IMG/VR virus record: IMGVR_UViG_2718217885_000014
Span: 1-52,969 of that record
Source: a virus
Taxonomy: Duplodnaviria; Heunggongvirae; Uroviricota; Caudoviricetes
DNA: 52,969 nucleotides
Direction: 5' to 3' (one strand)
Position numbers and translations under genes: made by a program. This document shows positions 1,084-52,969 of the stretch, piece after piece. The notes below the pieces were generated by a model. It ran no database searches, had not been told where the DNA came from, and saw nothing but the letters and a program-made list of their open reading frames with translations. Numbering within the stretch: the first letter of the stretch is position 1; each line of letters starts with the position of its first letter.

Positions 1084-2037
1084 ATGCGGGCGAAACTTCT
1101 GGGAATAGTCCTGACAACCCCTATTGCGATCAGCTCTTTTGCTTCTACCGAGACTTTATCGTTTACTCCTGACAACATAAATGCGGACATTAGTCTTGGA
1201 AATCTGAGCGGAAAAACAAAAGAGCGTGTTTATCTAGCCGAAGAAGGAGGCCGAAAAGTCAGTCAACTCGACTGGAAATTCAATAACGCTGCAATTATTA
1301 AAGGTGCAATTAATTGGGATTTGATGCCCCAGATATCTATCGGGGCTGCTGGCTGGACAACTCTCGGCAGCCGAGGTGGCAATATGGTCGATCAGGACTG
1401 GATGGATTCCAGTAACCCCGGAACCTGGACGGATGAAAGTAGACACCCTGATACACAACTCAATTATGCCAACGAATTTGATCTGAATATCAAAGGCTGG
1501 CTCCTCAACGAACCCAATTACCGCCTGGGACTCATGGCCGGATATCAGGAAAGCCGTTATAGCTTTACAGCCAGAGGTGGTTCCTATATCTACAGTTCTG
1601 AGGAGGGATTCAGAGATGATATCGGCTCCTTCCCGAATGGAGAAAGAGCAATCGGCTACAAACAACGTTTTAAAATGCCATACATTGGCTTGACTGGAAG
1701 TTATCGTTATGAAGATTTTGAGCTAGGTGGCACATTTAAATACAGCGGCTGGGTGGAAGCATCTGATAACGATGAGCACTATGACCCAGGAAAAAGAATC
1801 ACTTATCGCAGCAAAGTCAAAGACCAAAATTACTATTCTGTTTCAGTCAATGCAGGTTATTACGTAACACCTAACGCAAAAGTTTATGTTGAAGGCGCAT
1901 GGAATCGGGTTACGAATAAAAAAGGTAATACTTCACTTTATGATCACAATGATAACACTTCAGACTACAGCAAAAATGGTGCAGGCATAGAAAACTATAA
2001 CTTCATCACTACTGCTGGTCTTAAGTACATTTTTTAA
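1084..2037 (+). CDS. ompT: outer membrane protease OmpT (omptin)
   Basis: 317-aa translation matches E. coli OmpT almost residue for residue from memory (MRAKLLGIVLTTPIAISSFASTETLSF...), including signal peptide. Confidence 0.95.
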   Translation: MRAKLLGIVLTTPIAISSFASTETLSFTPDNINADISLGNLSGKTKERVYLAEEGGRKVSQLDWKFNNAAIIKGAINWDLMPQISIGAAGWTTLGSRGGNMVDQDWMDSSNPGTWTDESRHPDTQLNYANEFDLNIKGWLLNEPNYRLGLMAGYQESRYSFTARGGSYIYSSEEGFRDDIGSFPNGERAIGYKQRFKMPYIGLTGSYRYEDFELGGTFKYSGWVEASDNDEHYDPGKRITYRSKVKDQNYYSVSVNAGYYVTPNAKVYVEGAWNRVTNKKGNTSLYDHNDNTSDYSKNGAGIENYNFITTAGLKYIF

Positions 2038-2223: not shown

Positions 2224-3708
2224 ATGCGAAAAATAATTACTCATTTCAAAGTTGTTTTAACGTTACTTCTACCAGTAACCGTATCTGCCCAGCAGATACA
2301 GTGGCAATCCTGTATGGCCAGTCAATTCAACCACTGGTTTGGTGAGGAAAAACCGTCTCCTGACTTACTATGTGGTTATTTGTCTGTTCCATTAAAATAT
2401 ACAGACACAGGCGGAGATGCTTCTTATGAAAAAAAATCACAAGTCAAACTAGCGTTGACAAAATTGCCGGCAAAAAGCAAGCATAAAGGAAGTATCCTGA
2501 TAATAAGTGGTGGTCCCGGGTTACCAGGCATAAATCCTTATATTAACTTTGACTGGCCAGTCACAAATCTTCGTGAGTCATGGGATATTATTGGATTTGA
2601 TCCTCGAGGCGTCGGACAGTCCACTCCGACAATAAACTGCCGGCAATCAGATACAGAGACTCAGGAAAACATAACCGGAAAGCAACAAGTATTAAATAAA
2701 ATTAATGCCTGTATCCATAATACCGGAGCCGAAGTCATTCGCCATATCGGCTCTAACGAGGCTGTATACGATATTGATCGTATTAGGCAAGCCTTGGGGG
2801 ATAAACAACTGACAGCCGTGGCGTATTCGTATGGAACTCAAATTGCAGCCTTATATGCAGAACGTTTTCCCTACAACGTAAGATCTATCGTTCTTGATGG
2901 AGTCGTCGATATCGATGACCTGGAGGACAACTTCACATGGCAACTCAAACAGGCACAGAGTTATCAGGAAACGTTTGATCGCTTTGCATCCTGGTGTGCG
3001 CGTACAAAAAGTTGCCCGCTTTCTTCAGACAGAGATAAGGCAATAACTCAGTTCCATGAGCTATTATCAAAATTACATCACAAACCTTTATTAGACAGTA
3101 AGGGAGAAAATATATCTTCAGATGAACTCATATCATTAACAACAGACCTTCTGCTATGGCGTTCATCATGGCCAACCCTTGCAACTGCCATACGCCAGTT
3201 CTCTCAGGGGATTGTCAGTAATGAAATTGAAACTGCGCTCAGTGCTCCGATAGCCTCAGAAGAGTCAAGCGATGCTTCGGGGGTAATCCTTTGTGTAGAT
3301 CAGGGGGATGAGCAATTAACACCAGAAGAGCGAAAATCCCGAAAAGACGCTCTTGCGAATGCCTTCCCGGCTATTAACTTTGACAATGGACGTTCCGATT
3401 CACCTGATTTTTGTGAATTATGGCCAATACATAGCGACCTGAACAAAACTCGCCTGAAAAATACTGTTCTGCCCTCTGGTTTACTGTTTGTAGCACACAA
3501 ATACGACCCAACAACGCCCTGGATTAATGCCCGTAAGATGGCAGAGAAATTTTCCAGCCCGTTACTAACAATAAATGGTGATGGGCATACATTAGCTCTC
3601 ACCGGAGTTAATTTATGTGTAGATAAAGCAGTTGTACATCACCTGATCACTCCACAAAAAATAGAAAATATATACTGCCCAGGAAATTCTGAAGCAGAAA
3701 TACAATAA
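2224..3708 (+). CDS. secreted alpha/beta hydrolase (peptidase S33-like)
   Basis: 494-aa ORF with N-terminal signal peptide (LLLPVTVSAQQ) and a GxSxG nucleophile elbow (AYSYGTQ); followed by a strong terminator. Confidence 0.65.
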   Translation: MRKIITHFKVVLTLLLPVTVSAQQIQWQSCMASQFNHWFGEEKPSPDLLCGYLSVPLKYTDTGGDASYEKKSQVKLALTKLPAKSKHKGSILIISGGPGLPGINPYINFDWPVTNLRESWDIIGFDPRGVGQSTPTINCRQSDTETQENITGKQQVLNKINACIHNTGAEVIRHIGSNEAVYDIDRIRQALGDKQLTAVAYSYGTQIAALYAERFPYNVRSIVLDGVVDIDDLEDNFTWQLKQAQSYQETFDRFASWCARTKSCPLSSDRDKAITQFHELLSKLHHKPLLDSKGENISSDELISLTTDLLLWRSSWPTLATAIRQFSQGIVSNEIETALSAPIASEESSDASGVILCVDQGDEQLTPEERKSRKDALANAFPAINFDNGRSDSPDFCELWPIHSDLNKTRLKNTVLPSGLLFVAHKYDPTTPWINARKMAEKFSSPLLTINGDGHTLALTGVNLCVDKAVVHHLITPQKIENIYCPGNSEAEIQ

Positions 3709-3891: not shown

Positions 3892-4128
3892 TCAATATAC
3901 ATTTTGCACCTTCGAGATAGTAATGGCTGTTACTGTAATATGAGTTACAAACAGCTTCATACCCAGAGCTACTGATGTATCAACACGATTCAACAATACC
4001 CGATATTTATTCCATGCCTCCAGCAACGATGTTTCTTCCTCCGTTGTGATTTCCAGGTCTACAGCATCCTGAAGTGGCGCAATATGCTCACTGGCTATCT
4101 GTATCACATAAAACTGCAACACCCGCAT
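3892..4128 (-). pseudogene. tail fibre assembly protein remnant (tfaX-like fragment)
   Basis: 78-aa ORF containing a motif remembered from Tfa-family proteins ([17 protein letters not shown]) but lacking the rest of a Tfa protein; lies just distal to the intact tfa. Confidence 0.35.
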
Positions 4129-4408
4129 TGCTGCCTGCAGCCCCCGAAAACATGACCGACATCATTAGGGTGAACATCGTCAGCCCCTGTATACAGCTGC
4201 CTGTTACTGCTGTTCACCACATCACGCATATCAACAAACGGGAGATTCAGCGTGGAGCAGCATTCCATTATGGCTACACGAACAGTATCAAGTTTCGCTG
4301 TATGACTCAGTGGTGTTGCCGGGCCAATTGTAACTTCGCGATTTTTTCTGGGCTAATTGACGTATAATTCTGGGCGGAAAGCGCGCCCAAAAAGCCCGGA
4401 ATTGACCG

Positions 4409-13599: not shown

Positions 13600-13928
13600 C
13601 AGTTCACCACCTGTTCAAACTCTGCGCTGAACTCAACACGCAGCATACTGACCCGCGACGACCATTTTGCGCAGGTCACCTTTATCTGCCGCCACTCATA
13701 AGGCGGCGTCCACAGAAAGGCTTTCCAGCCCCCGTGCTCAGCCAGAAACGACTCCAGCGCCGTGGCCTCCTCACGGGAGACAGACAGCGTCACGCTGTAC
13801 GTTTTCAGGTCAGCGTTCAGCCCGGCAGGCGCTCGCTGGGAATAGCCATCACCAAAGCGCACTTTCCTGACGGAAGGGGCCGAAACCACATCCATACCGG
13901 GTTTCACTTTCCAGCGGAAGGTTTTCAT
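13599..13928 (-). CDS. M: minor tail protein M
   Basis: 109 aa matching lambda M (MKTFRWKVKPGMDVVSAPSVRKVRFGDGYSQRAP). Confidence 0.9.
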   Translation of the reverse strand: MKTFRWKVKPGMDVVSAPSVRKVRFGDGYSQRAPAGLNADLKTYSVTLSVSREEATALESFLAEHGGWKAFLWTPPYEWRQIKVTCAKWSSRVSMLRVEFSAEFEQVVN

Positions 13929-16504
13929 CGTCCACCTCCGGAGAACAGGCCACCATCACGCATCTGTGTCTGAATTTCATCACGGGCACCCTTGCGGGCC
14001 ATGTCATACACTGCCTTCATCATCTGTGGACCTGGCAGACCATTCGTACCGTCGTTCTGAATCACCACGTGATTGTTCTGATTAAAATTAATGCCTTCAG
14101 CCCGCCGCATCTGCGCCGGACTTCCGGCACCGCCCACATAACCACCTTCCGCATAGCCCCGCATCAGGCGGTACAGGTTGCCGACACCAATCCGGCTGGT
14201 TGCCTCCTTCGTGAAGACAAATTCACCACGGTGAACAATCCCCGCTGGCTCATATTTGCCGCCGGTTCCTGTGAATCCTCCGGTTGCAAAATGGAATTTC
14301 GCCGCAGCGGCCTGAATGGCTGTACCGCCTGACGCGGATGCGCCGCCACCAACAGCCCCGCCAATGGCGCTGCCGATACTCCCGACAATCCCCACCATTG
14401 CCTGCTTAAGCAGAATTTCTGTCATCATGGACAGCACGGAACGGGTGAAGCTGCGCCAGTTCTGTTCACTGCCGGTCAGCATCGCCGCCATATTCTGTGC
14501 AATACCATCAAAGGTCTGCGTGGCAGCACTTTTAACCTGCGACATACTGTCCGTGGCGCTCTCTTTCCACTCGCTCCAGCCGGACCTGAGGCCTGCCATC
14601 CAGCTCCCGCGAAGCAGGTCTTCAGCCGCCCAGGTCTTTTTCTGCTCTGACATGACGTTATTCAGCGCCAGAGGATTATCGCCATACTGTTCCTTCAGGC
14701 GCTGTTCCGTGGCTTCCCGTTCTGCCTGCCGGTCAGTCAGCCCCCGGCTTTTCGCATCAATGGCGGCCCGTTTTGCCCGTTGCTGCTGTGCGAATTTATC
14801 CGCCTGCTGCGCCAGCGTGTTCAGGCGCCCCTGATACGTAACCTTGTCACCAAGTGCAGCCAGCTGGCGTTTGTACTCCAGCGTCTCGTCTTTATGCGCC
14901 AGCAGGGATTTCTCCTGTACAGACAGCTGGCGACGTTGCGCCGCCTCCTCCAGTACCGCGAACTGACTCTCCGCCTTCCACAAATCCCGGCGCTGCTGGC
15001 TGATTTTCTCATTCGCTCCGGCATGCTTCTCCAGCGTCCGGAGTTCTGCCTGAAGCGTCAGCAGGGCTGCATGCGCCCGGTCTTCCTGACGCTCCCCGGC
15101 TGACACTTTGACACCTGACGACTTCGGTTTTTTCAGCGTCGATTCATAATCCTTTTTCGCCGCCGCCATCAGCGTGTTGTAATCCGCCTGCAGGATTTTC
15201 CCGTCTTTCAGGGCATTATTCAGCTCTTCCTGCCGGTCAGTATATTTCTCCAGTGGCGTCAGCAGGCGCTCATACGCCTTCTGCGCCTCTCCGGTATACT
15301 TCAGCTGTGACGCCTCACGCTCAGCCCGGTCCCTTGCCACCAGTTCACCGGCTTTTTCCATATCCGACTGCAGCGTGGCTGCCGCCAGCCCCAGACGGGC
15401 ATTTTCACGGTCATCCCATGCACCCTGAAGGTTGGCACGGAAAGAGGAGGTCTTTCCCCGGCGCTGACTCCGGCTCTGGTACCACTGCCATTTTTTATCC
15501 GCCTCATCAAATGCCTTCTGCGCACTGGCGAGCATATCCGCTGAGGATTCAGGACGACCGATATCCAGGATGGCATCCCACATCAATTTGAATGCCTTCC
15601 CGGTTTTATCCGCCCAGTTTTCCAGCGTCCCCATGTTTTCTTTCAGGCGACGGGTCTGCTCATCAAAGCCTTTTGTGGCGATATCGTTCGCCGCCTGTAA
15701 GGCCCCTGCCTCATCCCCCGAACGCTGCAGCTGCGCAACATACGCAATCTGCTCTGCCGTCACGTTACGGAACTGGCGCGCCATAGCCATCAGTCCCGAC
15801 GTCGGGTCGGTGGTCAGCTTTCCAAAAGCCTCTGCAACCTTGTCCACTTCCACACCGGATGCAGAAGCAAAACGCGCCACACTCTGGTTGATGGCATCAA
15901 ACTGTTCACCACCACGCACACCGGCATTCACCAGGGCTGCCAGTGACTCACTCGCCTGGTTAAACGTCAGCCCTGCTGCCTGTCCGGCTCTGGACAGGAC
16001 CAGCATGCGATCTGCCGTCAGACCCGACTGATTGCCGGAAAGGACCAGCGTTTTGTTGAAATCGGACAGGGTTGAGTTGCCCTGATACCAGGCATACGCC
16101 AGCGCACCGGTCGCCACCGCCAGCGAGGTGGCCCCGACCATCGGCAGGGTGATCGCACCGGCAAGCCCCCTGAACATGGGGATCATCCCGCCGAAGGAGT
16201 CCTTAACCTGACCACCCTGTTGCAGCAGGATCAGCCACGGACTTTGCCCGCCTGCAAGCTGCGTGGCCACGTCGGTGAACTGTGCAGGCAGCATACGCAT
16301 GGCGGCTTTATACTGCCCGACGGAAATCCCCGCTTTCTGTGCAGCCAGCGCCTGCCGGTTCATCGACTGTTCAACGACTGCCGCTGTTTTTTTCGCATCA
16401 CTTTCCGTACCGGAAAAATGACGCCTGACTCTGGCCATCTGCTCGTCAAATCTGGCCGCATCAAGACTTAAATCAACGACCAGATCGCCTACCGGTTCAG
16501 CCAT
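13925..16504 (-). CDS. H: tail tape measure protein H
   Basis: 859 aa (lambda H is 853 aa from memory); N-terminus MAEPVGDLVVDLSLDAARFDEQMARV; coiled-coil-rich middle; Gly-rich C-terminal region. Confidence 0.9.
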   Translation of the reverse strand: MAEPVGDLVVDLSLDAARFDEQMARVRRHFSGTESDAKKTAAVVEQSMNRQALAAQKAGISVGQYKAAMRMLPAQFTDVATQLAGGQSPWLILLQQGGQVKDSFGGMIPMFRGLAGAITLPMVGATSLAVATGALAYAWYQGNSTLSDFNKTLVLSGNQSGLTADRMLVLSRAGQAAGLTFNQASESLAALVNAGVRGGEQFDAINQSVARFASASGVEVDKVAEAFGKLTTDPTSGLMAMARQFRNVTAEQIAYVAQLQRSGDEAGALQAANDIATKGFDEQTRRLKENMGTLENWADKTGKAFKLMWDAILDIGRPESSADMLASAQKAFDEADKKWQWYQSRSQRRGKTSSFRANLQGAWDDRENARLGLAAATLQSDMEKAGELVARDRAEREASQLKYTGEAQKAYERLLTPLEKYTDRQEELNNALKDGKILQADYNTLMAAAKKDYESTLKKPKSSGVKVSAGERQEDRAHAALLTLQAELRTLEKHAGANEKISQQRRDLWKAESQFAVLEEAAQRRQLSVQEKSLLAHKDETLEYKRQLAALGDKVTYQGRLNTLAQQADKFAQQQRAKRAAIDAKSRGLTDRQAEREATEQRLKEQYGDNPLALNNVMSEQKKTWAAEDLLRGSWMAGLRSGWSEWKESATDSMSQVKSAATQTFDGIAQNMAAMLTGSEQNWRSFTRSVLSMMTEILLKQAMVGIVGSIGSAIGGAVGGGASASGGTAIQAAAAKFHFATGGFTGTGGKYEPAGIVHRGEFVFTKEATSRIGVGNLYRLMRGYAEGGYVGGAGSPAQMRRAEGINFNQNNHVVIQNDGTNGLPGPQMMKAVYDMARKGARDEIQTQMRDGGLFSGGGR

Positions 16505-17335
16505 ACCGGACTCCTCCTGCGATCCCTTCTGATACTGTCATCAGCATTACGTCATCCTCCGTCATGTCCGCCACATCCGGGGAAGCGGGGATAACTTCAT
16601 TCCCGTCCGGGCCAAAGCGGACGCCTCCGGCAAGCCCTGCCGCTTTCTGCATCAGCACATCATCTTCAGGCTCTTCGTCAGCCTCACGCCGGTTCAGCAG
16701 ACTGAAATCCAGCGGATGCATATCCGGATCGCTGAAAAACAGGCTGAGCACGGTGTACGTCAGCCCGGAAAAGTGCATATCCAGCAGAACATCATGAAAA
16801 TAATGGGTACTGTAAAAGCGGTGCCAGTCGGCATACTCCGTGGATGACATCCCGGCAAGCATGGCACGCCAGTCGGGTCGCCCCATCTCGCGCGCCAGTT
16901 TCAGGGCAAAACTCAGCTCACCGTCGAACACTTTCCCGCAGAAACAGGCTCTGCAGGCCCGGCGTCCTCTGCCTGTTCAGGGGCATCATTCACCACAAAC
17001 TCATACATACCGGACAGCCGGTACACCACGTTTTCAGCATGAGAAATTGCCTCTGTGGGCCAGGTGGTAAGCACTTCCTGCTCAATCTGTTTAACGGCTT
17101 CATTCATGGAAGGCTGCTTTGTCTTCTGCGGATGGTTATGCCACAGGGACATAGCCACCACAAAAGCACCGGTTCTGATGGCGTCTTCCACTGTAAACTT
17201 CCGGTTGCTGTCTGACTCCGCCTGTTCTGCCTGCCGTTTCATCAGGGCGAGATGCTCAATGCGCTGCAGGGCTGACAGTTCAGAAAGCGTGACGGTCACA
17301 CCGTTATGTTCAAATGATTCGGTTTTCAGGAACAT
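16497..17335 (-). CDS. tail assembly chaperone G-T fusion made by programmed -1 frameshift
   Basis: Minus-strand slippery heptamer G GGA AAG (plus-strand ctttccc, 16931-16937) near the end of G; the -1 frame continues as the lambda T sequence (FDGELSFALKLAREMGRPDWRAMLAGMSSTEYADWHRFY) to 16497. Confidence 0.75.
16913..17335 (-). CDS. G: tail assembly chaperone G
   Basis: 140 aa, MFLKTESFEHNGVTVTLSELSALQRIEHLALMKRQ as in lambda G; TGA stop at 16913-16915. Confidence 0.9.
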   Translation of the reverse strand: MFLKTESFEHNGVTVTLSELSALQRIEHLALMKRQAEQAESDSNRKFTVEDAIRTGAFVVAMSLWHNHPQKTKQPSMNEAVKQIEQEVLTTWPTEAISHAENVVYRLSGMYEFVVNDAPEQAEDAGPAEPVSAGKCSTVS

Positions 17336-17350
17336 CGCTGACTCTCCGGA

Positions 17351-18091
17351 TTAACTGGCGGTGACGGTAATTTCTGCAACCGCAGCAAACTCACCATTAC
17401 CGGATACAACCGGAATGTTGACCTTGCCTGCAGCAACGCCGTTCACGGTGATGGTCATACCACTGACCGACACGGTGGCTTTTGTTTTATCCGCAGACAC
17501 CGCACGAAAGCTCTTGTCGGTTACGCCCTCCGGCTGGAATGCCACGGTCAGCGTGGTGCTCTGCCCTTTCACCACCGAGGTGCTGGCAGGCGTCACGGTC
17601 ATGCCGGTTGCCGCTGTTACCGTGCTGCGATCTTCTGCCATCGACGGACGTCCCACATTGGTGACCTTCACCGTGCGGGTGATCACTTCCTTCGCCGTCA
17701 CCGCCTTACCGATACTGCTGACCCAGCCACGGAACACATCGACCGTGCCGTTCGGGAAGCGGATTTTATAGGCACGGGTATCGCCTTCATTAAACCACGC
17801 CAGCAGCGCCTGCTGCCCCTGCTCTCCGGGCATCCACGCCAGCGTGAAGCTGGTATCTCCGGCAGATTTCTGCCCCTGCCCGGTCGCAGTCCAGTCTGCA
17901 TCTTCATCATCGAGATAGCTGTCGTCATAGGACTCAGCGGTCAGTTCGCCGGGCGTCAGGTCTTTAACTTTTGCCAGACGCGACCAGTCAACGTCTGAAA
18001 GCGGGTTCGCATAAGGGTCGCCGCTCCCGTTATAAACCCACAGGGTGGTTCCGGCACCTTTCACCGGTATTGCTGGATTTGGTACAGGCAT
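17351..18091 (-). CDS. V: major tail protein V with C-terminal Ig-like domain
   Basis: 246 aa from internal ATG ([20 protein letters not shown]), matching lambda V; the track ORF begins 10 codons upstream at a TTG. Confidence 0.9.
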
Positions 18092-33685: not shown

Positions 33686-33762
33686 TGGCGCGTTGTACTG
33701 GATTCGAACCAGTGACCGATTGCTTAGAAGGCAATTGCTCTGTCCGACTGAGCTAACAACGC
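33686..33762 (-). tRNA. tRNA-Arg (anticodon UCU)
   Basis: 77-nt cloverleaf folded by hand: acceptor GCGTTGT/ACAACGC, D-arm GCTC/GAGC, anticodon stem ATTGC/GCAAT with loop CTTCTAA, T-loop TTCGAAT, encoded CCA. Confidence 0.8.
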
Positions 33763-33775
33763 ATGATGCAGATAA

Positions 33776-33856
33776 TGGACCGCCATCGAGGACTCGAACC
33801 CCGCACCAACAACCCTGTTATCGTGTCGTCTGCTCTTCCTGATGAGCTAATGGCGG
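33776..33856 (-). tRNA. tRNA-like gene with atypical anticodon arm (anticodon not assignable; possibly degenerate)
   Basis: Acceptor CCGCCAT/ATGGCGG, D-arm GCTC/GAGC, T-arm CGGGG-TTCGAGT-CCTCG and CCA are canonical, but 27 nt lie between D and T arms and no standard 5-7-5 anticodon stem-loop could be folded by hand. Confidence 0.45.
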
Positions 33857-33863
33857 TATGTTA

Positions 33864-33939
33864 TGGTGGCCCTTGCTGGATTTGAACCAGCGACCTGGCG
33901 ATTATGAGTCGCTCGCTCTCACCACTGAGCTAAAGGGCC
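33864..33939 (-). tRNA. tRNA with CAU anticodon (Met, or Ile2 if lysidine-modified, as ileZ of phage 933W)
   Basis: 76-nt cloverleaf: acceptor GGCCCTT/AAGGGCC, D-arm GCTC-AGTGGTGA-GAGC, anticodon loop CTCATAA, T-loop TTCAAAT, CCA. Confidence 0.8.
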
Positions 33940-42671: not shown

Positions 42672-43831
42672 TTACGCCCCCTTACCTCTGAAGAGTTCAG
42701 CGACGAATGAATAAGACGGGCAAGAAATGCCGCATCGTTAATTCGGTCATACAGACTTACAGCCAGCGGTGATTCAGCTTTTTCCAGCATGGGATAAAGC
42801 TGCTGCAACCAGACCTGATGAATTGATGAAATGTAGGAATAGAGTACGCTGGCGTTATGTGCAACGTCGCTCGGTACAGCGGGCTTTGAAAGCTGTTTCT
42901 CCATCTGGTTAAAGGCATTGATGTATGCCTCCTTGAACTGGGCTGCACGTTTGCCAGTGAAGCCCATTGCCAAGAACGCGAAGCCGTCGCGGGTGATGTG
43001 GTAGCAAGGAAGTTTGCGAGTACCGCCGTTGGGCTGGTGTACCCAAATTGATGTCTCCGCAAAATTGCGGGCACAAAACTCTGGAGAACAATCCAAAATG
43101 CGGATCTTTTTCAGAACATCGTCATGACGTTTAGAGAAGAAGTCAGCAACAGCCAAAGAAGATGTAACAGCCTGACCATCAACGATGGCAATTTCAGGTT
43201 GAGAGAGGGTTGGGAGAGTAGTCATGGTGACAGCCCCGGTAGTCAGTTTTTCAGAAAACTCACCACATGGGACGCCAATCACAGAGGTGGTGAGACGTAC
43301 AGGGTTGGCGTTACCGGAGACTACCGAACCCGGCCCGACCGAAGTCGGCCCTGTACGCCCCACCATAATTTGGGCGTAGCAATGCTCATGACACGAAAAA
43401 ACCGCATGAGCGCGGTTATGCTCAGTAATCAATTTCAGGACGCCAATCCCGGCACCCGTTTTATAAGGTGCCTGAACAGTGTAACGTCCCGGAATGGCAG
43501 AATCAATGTGCTGGTGGTCCTTCACACTCAACAAAATCACGCCTGAATTTCCACAAAGGACTAAAGCACTCATGCGGGTAGTCTTTGCGAAGATAGATAA
43601 CGCGCTGTGTATCTGGTTCCCAACGAATAACATGGACATAAAGCCCTCTTCCGTCACGAAACCAGCGGTTAAGTTCCTGCACAACTCGCCCCCCACAGTC
43701 AGGTAAAGTTCTCTGTGGTTACTTACAGCCAGGTGATTTGGTAATCTGCATTCATGCCGTAACAACAGGAGTTCAGCGACGCTGACCACCAGCTGTTGCG
43801 ACAAACGGTTATTTGCCGTTAAACTGTTCAT
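42668..43831 (-). CDS. Rha-family phage regulatory protein with about 200-aa N-terminal extension (possible alternative start at 43225)
   Basis: 387-aa ORF; residues from about 203 (MTTLPTLSQPEIAIVDGQAVTSSLAVADFFSKRHDDVLKKIRILDC) resemble the Phage_pRha domain; start ATG overlaps the stop of the upstream gene, supporting the long form; ATG at 43223-43225 would give 185 aa. Confidence 0.6.
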   Translation of the reverse strand: MNSLTANNRLSQQLVVSVAELLLLRHECRLPNHLAVSNHRELYLTVGGELCRNLTAGFVTEEGFMSMLFVGNQIHSALSIFAKTTRMSALVLCGNSGVILLSVKDHQHIDSAIPGRYTVQAPYKTGAGIGVLKLITEHNRAHAVFSCHEHCYAQIMVGRTGPTSVGPGSVVSGNANPVRLTTSVIGVPCGEFSEKLTTGAVTMTTLPTLSQPEIAIVDGQAVTSSLAVADFFSKRHDDVLKKIRILDCSPEFCARNFAETSIWVHQPNGGTRKLPCYHITRDGFAFLAMGFTGKRAAQFKEAYINAFNQMEKQLSKPAVPSDVAHNASVLYSYISSIHQVWLQQLYPMLEKAESPLAVSLYDRINDAAFLARLIHSSLNSSEVRGRK

Positions 43832-50121: not shown

Positions 50122-50471
50122 TGGAGCCATACAGCCTCACACTCGATGAGGCCTGTCATTTTCTCAAGATATCCAGACCGACTGCCATTAATTGGATACG
50201 CACAGGGCGTCTTCAGGCAACACGCAAAGATCCCACTAAGAATAAATCTCCTTACCTCACAACACGACAAGCCTGCATTGCGGCTCTTCAGTCTCCGCTG
50301 CATACTGTCCAGGTGAGCGCGGGTGATGGCATAACAGAGGAAAGAAAATGTCACTCTTCCGCAGAGGTGAAATATGGTACGCCAGTTTCACATTGCCGAA
50401 CGGAAAAAGATTTAAACAGTCTCTTGGAACAAAGGACAAAAGGCAGGCGACAGAACTCCATGACAAGCTAA
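50121..50471 (+). CDS. xis: excisionase (AlpA/HTH_17-like)
   Basis: 116 aa from ATG 50121 (AGGTGA Shine-Dalgarno); HTH region [26 protein letters not shown]; 3' end overlaps the integrase start. Confidence 0.65.
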
Positions 50472-51511
50472 AGGCTGAAGCATGGCGGGTCAGCAAACTT
50501 GGTGAAATACCTGATATAACGTTCGAGGAAGCGTGTGTCAGGTGGCTTGAAGAGAAAGCACATAAAAAATCACTGGACGATGACAAAAGCCGGATCGGAT
50601 TCTGGCTTCAACATTTCGCAGGAATGCAACTAAGAGACATTACTGAATCAAAAATTTATTCAGCAATGCAGAAAATGACGAACCGGCGTCATGAGGAAAA
50701 CTGGAAACTCAGGGCAGAAGCATGCAGAAAAAAAGGGAAACCTGTTCCAGAATACACGCCAAAACCAGCGTCCGTTGCAACGAAGGCTACGCATCTTTCA
50801 TTTATAAAGGCCCTACTAAGAGCCGCAGAGCGTGAATGGAAAATGCTGGATAAGACACCAATTATTAAAGTGCCTCAACCAAAGAATAAACGGATCCGCT
50901 GGCTGGAGCCTCATGAAGCACAAAGGCTGATTGATGAATGTCCGGAGCCATTAAAGTCTGTTGTTGAATTTGCACTGGCAACAGGCTTAAGACGCTCGAA
51001 CATCATCAACCTTGAATGGCAACAAATAGATATGCAGCGCCGGGTGGCATGGATAAACCCGGAAGAGAGTAAATCAAACCGCGCAATTGGCGTTGCGCTG
51101 AATGATACTGCATGTCGCATATTGAAAAAACAAATAGGGAATCATCACCGTTGGGTATTTGTGTACAAGGAAAGCTGTACCAAACCAGACGGAACAAAAG
51201 CGCCAACAGTAAGGAAGATGCGGTATGACGCAAACACAGCCTGGAAAGCGGCGCTGAGACGGGCTGGTATTGATGATTTCAGATTTCACGACTTGAGACA
51301 CACCTGGGCAAGTTGGCTGGTTCAAGCCGGAGTCCCGTTGTCAGTGTTACAGGAAATGGGAGGCTGGGAGTCTATCGAAATGGTTCGTCGATATGCTCAC
51401 CTTGCACCTAATCACCTTACCGAACACGCACGGCAAATAGACTCGATCCTGATCCCATCGGTCCCAAATTTGTCCCAGTCAAAAAATAAGGAAGGTACTA
51501 ATGATGTGTAA
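50348..51511 (+). CDS. int: tyrosine site-specific integrase
   Basis: 387 aa; C-terminal catalytic region with R...HDLRHT...Y motifs ([26 protein letters not shown]); ends 14 nt before the 3' end of thrW. Confidence 0.9.
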
Positions 51512-51525
51512 CTTATTGATTTAGA

Positions 51526-51601
51526 TGGTGCCGATAATAGGAGTCGAACCTACGACCTTCGCATTACGAATGCGCTGCTCTACCAACTGAGCTATATCGG
51601 C
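51526..51601 (-). tRNA. thrW: tRNA-Thr (anticodon CGU), thrW; prophage attachment site
   Basis: 76-nt cloverleaf with anticodon loop TTCGTAA and encoded CCA; sequence matches E. coli thrW from memory; integrase converges on its 3' end. Confidence 0.85.
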
Positions 51602-51715: not shown

Positions 51716-52969
51716 TTACGCACGAATGGTGTAATCACCAATGCCGATCCACTTGTAAGTGGTCAGTGCTTCCAGCCCCATTGGGCCACGCGCGTGGAGT
51801 TTTTGTGTGCTTACCGCCACTTCCGCACCCAGACCAAACTGGCCGCCGTCGGTAAAACGCGTAGAGGCGTTAACGTAAACAGCGGACGAATCCACTTCGT
51901 TAACAAAACGCTGGGCGTTGCGCATATCGCGGGTCAGGATCGCATCGGAGTGTTGTGTGCCGTGTTCACGAATATGGGCGATGGCATCGTCAAGATCGCT
52001 GACGATTTTGACGTTCAAATCTAATGACAGAAACTCATCGTCATACTCTTCGGCTTTAACAGCAACCACCTTCGCAGGGCCTGCCTGCAACTGCGCCAGT
52101 GCAGCTGCATCTGCGTGTAATGTCACGCCGCTTTCCGCCATTTGTTTGCTTAATGCGGGCAGGAAGCTATCGGCGATGTTTTTATTCACCAGCAACGTTT
52201 CAACCGTATTACATGTGCTCGGACGCTGAGTTTTCGCGTTGACGATCACTTTTAATGCTTCAGCGATCTCTACACTTTCATCAACGTAAATATGGCATAC
52301 GCCTATACCACCTGTGATCACCGGGATTGTCGACTGTTCACGGCACAGTTTATGCAAACCAGCGCCACCACGCGGGATCAGCATGTCGATGTATTTATCC
52401 ATACGCAGCATTTCACTGACCAGCGCACGGTCAGGATTATCAATCGCCTGCACGGCACCCGCCGGTAAGCCACAGGATTTCAGGGCGTCCTGAATCACCG
52501 CCACCGTTGCCGCGTTAGTGCGACAGGTTTCTTTGCCACCACGCAGGATCACCGCATTACCGGTTTTCAGGCACAGCGAAGCGACATCAACCGTCACGTT
52601 CGGGCGCGCTTCATAAATCACGCCAATCACCCCCAGCGGCACGCGACGACGCTCAAGACGCAGGCCGCTGTCCAGTACGCTGCCATCGATTACCTGCCCC
52701 ACCGGATCGGCGAGGTTACACACCTGGCGCACATCATCGGCAATGCCTTTCAGCCGTGCGGGCGTCAGTGCCAGACGGTCAAGCATCGCTTCGCCAAGGC
52801 CATTGGCACGCGCGTCAGCAACATCCTGGGCGTTAGCGTTGAGGATGATTTCGCTTTGTGCTTCCAGTTCATCGGCGATTTTTTCCAGCACGCGATTTTT
52901 TTCGCGGCTGGAGAGTTGCGCTAATTTATACGAGGCTTGCTTCGCGGCAATGCCCATTTGTTCCAGCAT
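51716..52969 (-). CDS. proA: gamma-glutamyl phosphate reductase ProA
   Basis: 417 aa, [58 protein letters not shown] matches E. coli ProA; ATG is the last codon of the window. Confidence 0.95.

Follow-up and report, generated by a model that had tools for sequence, protein, structure and literature searches.

The G GGA AAG heptamer in the tail chaperone genes of a lambdoid Escherichia coli prophage as the very probable site of a lambda-type programmed −1 frameshift

In phage lambda the tail chaperone genes G and T are joined by ribosomes that slip back one base shortly before the end of G, and a pair of overlapping reading frames with the same appearance is present in the window analyzed here, a DNA stretch of 52,969 nucleotides that is a mosaic lambdoid prophage of E. 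coli of a common type. Is the second frame of this pair a gene in its own right, or is it the extension of the first that is entered by frameshifting at a slippery heptamer? The latter is very probably correct, and no feature of the DNA speaks against it. The locus is most likely the programmed −1 ribosomal frameshift site of lambda-type genes G/T. The evidence gathered at the locus, all of it observed directly, comprises the sequence and phase of the heptamer, a −1 frame that stays open, homology, synteny and conservation among relatives.

The plus strand reads CTTTCCC at positions 16931-16937, which corresponds to GGGAAAG on the minus strand. Gene G (16913..17335, minus strand) is an open reading frame of 423 nt that specifies a tail assembly chaperone of 140 aa as the 0-frame product, with its TGA stop at 16915..16913. 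The heptamer (16931..16937, minus strand) starts at offset 398 in the G frame (398 mod 3 = 2), which sets it in the phase G|GGA|AAG, that is, as a slippery X_XXY_YYZ site at codons 134-135 of 140. In the 0 frame the heptamer supplies Gly134 and Lys135, and the five codons beyond it read Cys-Ser-Thr-Val-Ser before the TGA. The −1 frame from the heptamer reads GGG AAA GTG TTC GAC and is open up to the stop at 16497-16499, which amounts to 144 codons after the shift. The conceptual G-T fusion (16497..17335, minus strand) is accordingly 279 aa in length, comprising G residues 1-135 and 144 residues from the −1 frame, and conceptual translation of the junction gives ...PVSAGKVFDGELSFALK. The T segment (16497..16931, minus strand) is listed as an open reading frame that begins on the last G of the heptamer, having been called mechanically from a GTG; this first codon is read as Val in the fusion.

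The motif GGGAAAG is not rare in the window: eight copies were counted on the two strands compared to ~6.5 expected from the length. Only two of the eight have the X_XXY_YYZ phase within a genuine open reading frame of some length, and only the copy at 16937..16931 lies seven codons before a stop and has a −1 extension that continues for 138 codons past that stop. The significance of the heptamer thus derives from its context and homology and not from the seven bases alone. The second in-phase G GGA AAG (15452-15458, minus strand) is inside gene H, 360 codons from where the open frame begins. A slip there would truncate H, since the −1 frame closes after 15 codons; with this short −1 frame, and being missing from lambda H, the copy was rejected as a frameshift site and is probably incidental. 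A TTTAAAC motif in phase at 50411-50417 (plus strand), at the end of a 144-aa open reading frame with a −1 continuation of 346 codons, resembled an IS-type frameshift, but was also discarded as incidental because the −1 frame is an integrase gene with its own upstream ATG at 50348. Transcriptional slippage at the G-T site was taken to be unlikely, given that no homopolymer run exceeds three bases. Searches of Rfam, both with gathering thresholds and with a cutoff of E ≤ 10, returned no family that covers the G-T site.

Both halves of the pair are recognizable by profile. G matches PF06894 (Phage_TAC_2) with E = 4.9e-59 across profile positions 1-125 of 126, and the T extension matches PF06223 (Phage_tail_T, minor tail protein T) over the full profile length with E = 2.1e-14. 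The Phage_TAC_2 and Phage_tail_T domains were both detected on the translated fusion. Upstream of G-T is gene V (17351..18091, minus strand), whose product, the major tail tube protein, is 246 aa from the lambda-equivalent start MPVPNP and contains PF16461 (Phage_TTP_12, E = 2.4e-70) and a Big_2 domain. The V start at 18091 was inferred by homology, and the ORF finder extends V to 18121; lambda V is 741 nt. Downstream, gene H (13925..16504, minus strand) encodes a tape-measure protein of 859 aa with PF06791 (TMP_2) and PF09718 (Tape_meas_lam_C). The start of H overlaps the stop of T by 8 nt as in lambda, and V, G-T and H are all on the minus strand. The H protein of lambda is 853 aa, and the tape-measure rule predicts a marginally longer tail here.

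Alignment with lambda G/T (NC_001416, 9711-10549), which had been proposed as a check of the site, placed the heptamer at the same position and in frame. The two loci are alike in the heptamer, its phase and its distance to the G stop, in frames of 140 and 144 codons that yield a 279-aa fusion, in the V-G-T-H order and in the 8-nt T/H overlap. G is identical to lambda G at 135 of 140 residues (96%), with five amino-acid changes, and T is identical throughout (144/144, 100%). At the DNA level 20 of 871 aligned positions differ from NC_001416, with no gaps, and the bases around the heptamer match lambda for at least 19 nt upstream and at least 40 nt downstream. The five changes in G, the length of H, the early region and the integration site distinguish this prophage from lambda. 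Overall, three statements in the original prediction withstood scrutiny at this stage: that the heptamer is in frame near the end of G, as its phase at codons 134-135 bears out, the gene being a genuine G homologue; that the −1 frame continues as a T-like sequence, which is identical to lambda T and contains PF06223; and that the chaperone pair is intact, as seen in the full-length G and T, the gene order and the T/H overlap.

The conservation of the site was assessed in ~130 related loci in which G identity extended down to 31%. A scan of IMG/VR with G recovered only relatives that were 97-100% identical, which are useless for tests of divergence, and therefore the divergence set was composed of a graded series from a phage collection and a scan of one genome per species. 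GGGAAAG was located seven codons before the G stop in all 80 IMG/VR loci, and the −1 frame was 144 codons in 79 of these and 129 codons in one. The heptamer also was retained in relatives from the phage collection with 86%, 81% and 69% G identity. Stx1 and VT1-Sakai phages (40-43% G identity) instead have A AAA AAG at the homologous position, to which phages this version is confined. A third, non-canonical version, G GAA AAG, is present in HK225/N15-like phages, phi80, mEp043, cdtI and Klebsiella Kp4865-4 (31-47% G identity) and also in Phi06_2987. The strict X_XXY_YYZ search produced no match in 5 of 12 phage-record loci, in which G GAA AAG is the homologous motif. The scan of one genome per species furnished 38 usable prophage loci from ~20 enterobacterial genera, with GGAAAAG in 34, GGGAAAG in two and AGAAAAG in two. 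None of the loci examined departed from A AAG at the homologous position. Moreover, the 0-frame Lys codon was AAG in 39 of 39 non-redundant sequences, compared to a diversity of ~0.4 at other synonymous sites. The −1 frame was open for 113-154 codons in all loci except one decayed Shigella copy.

That copy (locus L139, Shigella flexneri CP182557.1) keeps GGGAAAG, but its T frame is broken after 11 codons and its G frame is truncated. Further observations concern the distribution of the motif versions. G GAA AAG is the motif of most of the wider G-T family (loci L085-L092 and L110-L153), including most enterobacterial prophages, and only the lambda clade has the canonical G GGA AAG. A perfect slip on G GAA AAG is limited to the A-site A AAG, and the P-site slip from GAA to GGA needs a middle G:U pair. 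The T proteins also differ in length. The lambda-clade T C-terminus (~16497-16660, minus strand) includes a tandem duplication, ...EDDVLMQKAAGLAGGVRFG... followed by ...EDDVMLMTVSEGIAGGVRYG, whereas T proteins of the N15, phi80 and cdtI types are shorter and end after one copy of this C-terminal ...GG(V/I/T)R(Y/F)G motif. Searches with tblastn additionally found T sequences 100% identical to lambda T on short contigs attributed to unrelated genera, including Neobacillus, Oceanobacillus, Pseudomonas, Kitasatospora, Chromatium, Shewanella, Legionella, Bradyrhizobium and others. These contigs (loci L095-L109, L111, L114, L115, L122, L131, L145 and L154), many of which have coverage of ~1x, are almost certainly lambda DNA contamination of sequencing libraries. 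A lambda-type G is also present in MW057783.1, a record that bears the name Campylobacter phage CJLB-4.

The divergent sequences bear directly on how T is entered. T could instead be an independent gene that is started at GTG 16931 or at an internal ATG, with the heptamer incidental. The ORF finder and curated records (RefSeq, PGAP) do present T as a stand-alone coding sequence from that GTG, as in NC_001416 (10115-10549, RefSeq) and NZ_CP015228.1 (339352-339786, PGAP), neither of which has a joined ribosomal-slippage coding sequence, and some phage records begin T at an internal Met. Nevertheless, the GTG is unconserved, being replaced in relatives by GTC, GCA, GCC, GCG or GTA, and direct reading revealed no Shine-Dalgarno-like sequence at a workable distance before it, in agreement with the assignment of no SD to this cluster by Sharma et al. 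(2014). In most relatives Phe takes the place of the first internal Met of lambda T. In the T-frame protein, by comparison, conservation sets in at the second residue past the shift: K2, E7, F10 and L14-E17 are shared by all of 10 divergent sequences, and across the family conservation extends to T-frame residues that precede any conserved Met. The G-frame tail past the site varies both in length (2-7 codons) and in sequence. The combination of a conserved T frame with a variable start codon and a variable G tail is what would be expected if ribosomes reach T by frameshifting rather than by initiation. In addition, gpG and gpGT are the only g-t products described in those parts of reviews that deal with the two genes (PMC5009743). 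Independent initiation of T is therefore highly improbable. The original prediction had regarded the frame at 16497-16931 as the frameshift extension and not as a separate gene, and the unconserved GTG together with the T-frame conservation that begins at the shift upholds this view. Thus, a joined G-T coding sequence with ribosomal slippage is the better annotation, and the stand-alone T coding sequence of the ORF track and of the RefSeq and PGAP records forms its second half. A joined frameshift coding sequence is annotated in the record of phage 434 (OL657226.1).

The occurrence and rate of slippage and the roles of the proteins in this prophage are inferred from experiments with lambda because the two loci are nearly identical. 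By this analogy, most ribosomes would read G to its stop and produce gpG (140 aa), and a small fraction (~3-4% in lambda) would slip back one base, with the tRNA-Gly and tRNA-Lys on GGA AAG re-pairing on GGG AAA. Slipped ribosomes would then go on in the −1 frame to generate the 279-aa gpGT. The G domain shared by the two products would coat the tape-measure protein H, and the T domain would recruit the major tail protein V. Tails are likely to assemble correctly only at the gpG:gpGT ratio of ~30:1, which would be fixed by the slip frequency, and both proteins would be expected to be absent from the virion.

The lambda data on which this scheme is modeled are the experiments of Levin, Hendrix and Casjens on gpGT (Levin 1993, to which both PMC5009743 and PMC3296357 refer). 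The sections on g-t in the review by Atkins et al. (2016; PMC5009743) describe low-level −1 shifting with gpG:gpGT of ~30:1, the binding of the tape-measure protein by G domains and of the major tail protein by the T domain, and the requirement for gpG and gpGT in tail assembly together with their absence from virions. The lambda G-T values in Maynard et al. (2012; PMC3296357) correspond to ~96% 0-frame reading, i.e., a shift of ~4%, and the rate is described there and in relevant passages of a 2023 review in Annual Review of Virology (PMC7618472) as dependent on thiolation of tRNA-Lys(UUU); the latter review describes the same lambda site and mechanism. The running text of Maynard et al. (2012) prints the slippery sequence as GGGTTTG with the codons GGT-TTG, whereas Table 1 of that paper has the correct GGGAAAG. 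The misprint could mislead text-mined annotations.

Does an RNA signal assist the slip? The site shares with the IS911, IS3 and dnaX cassettes a tRNA-Lys-dependent heptamer ending in A AAG and tandem slippage of the X_XXY_YYZ kind. Those cassettes differ in possessing experimentally proven stimulators, an SD-like element and/or a 3′ hairpin or pseudoknot, and in their higher efficiency. At the G-T site direct reading of the 17 nt 5′ of the heptamer, GCAGAGCCUGUUUCUGC, revealed no GGAG, AGGA or GAGG that could act as an SD-like stimulator 6-17 nt upstream, and the SD entry for the G_GGA_AAG_4 (gpG) cluster in Table S4 of Sharma et al. (2014) is likewise N. On the 3′ side a putative stem-loop (16853..16923, minus strand) is weakly predicted to start 7-8 nt past the heptamer, with an outer helix CGGUGAGC/GCUUGCCG (16916-16923 with 16853-16860 in the predicted fold) around an inner GC-rich hairpin. 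If conserved, such a structure could pause the ribosome and lift slipping from 0.3% to ~4%. The idea is not new, as the earlier analysis of this cluster by Sharma et al. (2014) predicted a hairpin in 51% of its members with a 7-nt spacer.

Several results are in keeping with a stimulatory stem. Its spacer of 5-8 nt is canonical. The 120 nt after the heptamer have a folding z of −2.0 under dinucleotide shuffling, with the stem beginning 7 nt downstream, and when codons were shuffled synonymously across the reading frame the 90 nt after the heptamer were over-stable, with a mean z of −2.0 in 39 sequences. A sliding window in 16 diverse sequences showed a trough, z = −2.44, for the window that starts where the heptamer ends (offset 0), flanked by values of −1.56 at −20 and −1.67 at +20, against a background of ~ −0.4. 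An alignment of 13 sequences yielded a consensus of two nested helices in which five pairs changed on both sides, compared to 0-2 in slid controls. Covarying cells among the 39 sequences numbered 46 versus 10-14 in slid controls, and pair 16:84 occurs as GC, AU and CG. Furthermore, according to Table S3 of Sharma et al. (2014), GGGAAAG supports 0.277% shifting without a stimulator, 3.8% with the moderate stimulators of IS911 and 43% with the IS3 pseudoknot. The difference between 0.28% in a neutral reporter and ~4% in lambda implies some contribution of context.

Other results weigh against the stem. With the strictest null, in which third-codon bases were permuted within the folding window, the mean z was −1.4 at offsets −9 to +30, with a background of ~ −0.4. 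RNAalifold did not recover the stem from the full set of 39 sequences, in which seven pairs changed on both sides compared to 4-6 in slid controls, and |z| was <1 in 8 of the 39 non-redundant sequences (from Kluyvera, Leclercia, Erwinia, K. spallanzanii, Phytobacter diazotrophicus and C. meridianamericanus). Synonymous-site diversity was 0.40 in T codons 5-29, which cover the stem, and 0.43 in codons 30-78 (Mann-Whitney p = 0.32). The stem stretch also encodes the most conserved part of T. Downstream structure is reportedly dispensable for the shift according to the lambda work of Levin and colleagues. The cluster was scored as RVSS = N by Sharma et al. (2014), with a ddG of 0.020 that is below the 0.09 threshold, and the predicted hairpin was considered probably fortuitous; stimulatory signals seem not to be involved according to the lambda g-t section of Atkins et al. 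(2016; PMC5009743). A stimulated shift at this locus is therefore doubtful. The broader proposal that the G-T shift of lambda-like phages has a stimulator, a stem 5-8 nt past the slip site that would increase slippage ~tenfold over 0.28%, is equally tentative. Were it correct, the stem would matter most in the majority of relatives that have the weaker G GAA AAG, the gpG:gpGT ratio would be set jointly by the heptamer and the RNA structure, and the description of the classic G-T site as lacking a stimulator would need revision.

The prophage that houses the lambda-type site is a mosaic in which the structural module is ~96% lambda-like and the early region resembles other lambdoid phages. A tyrosine integrase gene (50348-51511, plus strand) is followed by tRNA-Thr(CGT) (51526-51601, minus strand), which is the likely att site, and by host proA (51716-52969, minus strand). 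The lambda att core GCTTTTTTATACTAA is absent from the window even when one mismatch is permitted. The prophage is located at tRNA-Thr(CGT) beside proA and not at attB-lambda. The opposite end of the window includes genes for an omptin-family outer-membrane protease (1084-2037, plus strand) and a 494-aa open reading frame with a faint hydrolase match (2224-3708, plus strand), and an IS009 sRNA identified with Rfam (3971-4168, minus strand). Two further stretches of the window (33686-33939 and 43283-43471, minus strand) account for phage-borne tRNA-Arg(TCT) and tRNA-Met(CAT) genes and for a C4 antisense RNA adjoining the isrK Hfq-binding sRNA.

A mosaic element lodged at a tRNA gene next to proA might be cryptic, with a G-T cassette that is a relic no longer expressed or selected in this genome, and the S. 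flexneri locus described above is at least one related copy in which the T frame has decayed. However, G, T, H, V and the neighboring structural reading frames are all full length and intact, and T is unchanged from lambda T. E. coli 09-00049 (NZ_CP015228.1) matches the G-T stretch at 100% identity. Two other complete E. coli genomes carry the locus with 100% identity, and of 5426 complete genomes of the species 3540 have the module. A relic is thus improbable, and silence of the prophage would in any case alter neither what the site is nor how it works.

Beyond the lambda clade the same arrangement recurs. N15/HK225, phi80 and VT1-Sakai, like the present prophage, have two overlapping reading frames flanked by the genes for the major tail protein and the tape-measure protein, with a shift-prone site near the end of the first and a −1 extension that bears the T domain. 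Xu, Hendrix and Duda are said to have described, in 2004, a conserved frameshift in the tail-assembly chaperone genes of long-tailed dsDNA phages. The G-T frameshift is thus already known (Levin 1993; Xu 2004) and has been textbook knowledge since 1993, and the understanding of its mechanism is unchanged by the present analysis. For this prophage, the intact G-T site shows that the tail-assembly module is intact.
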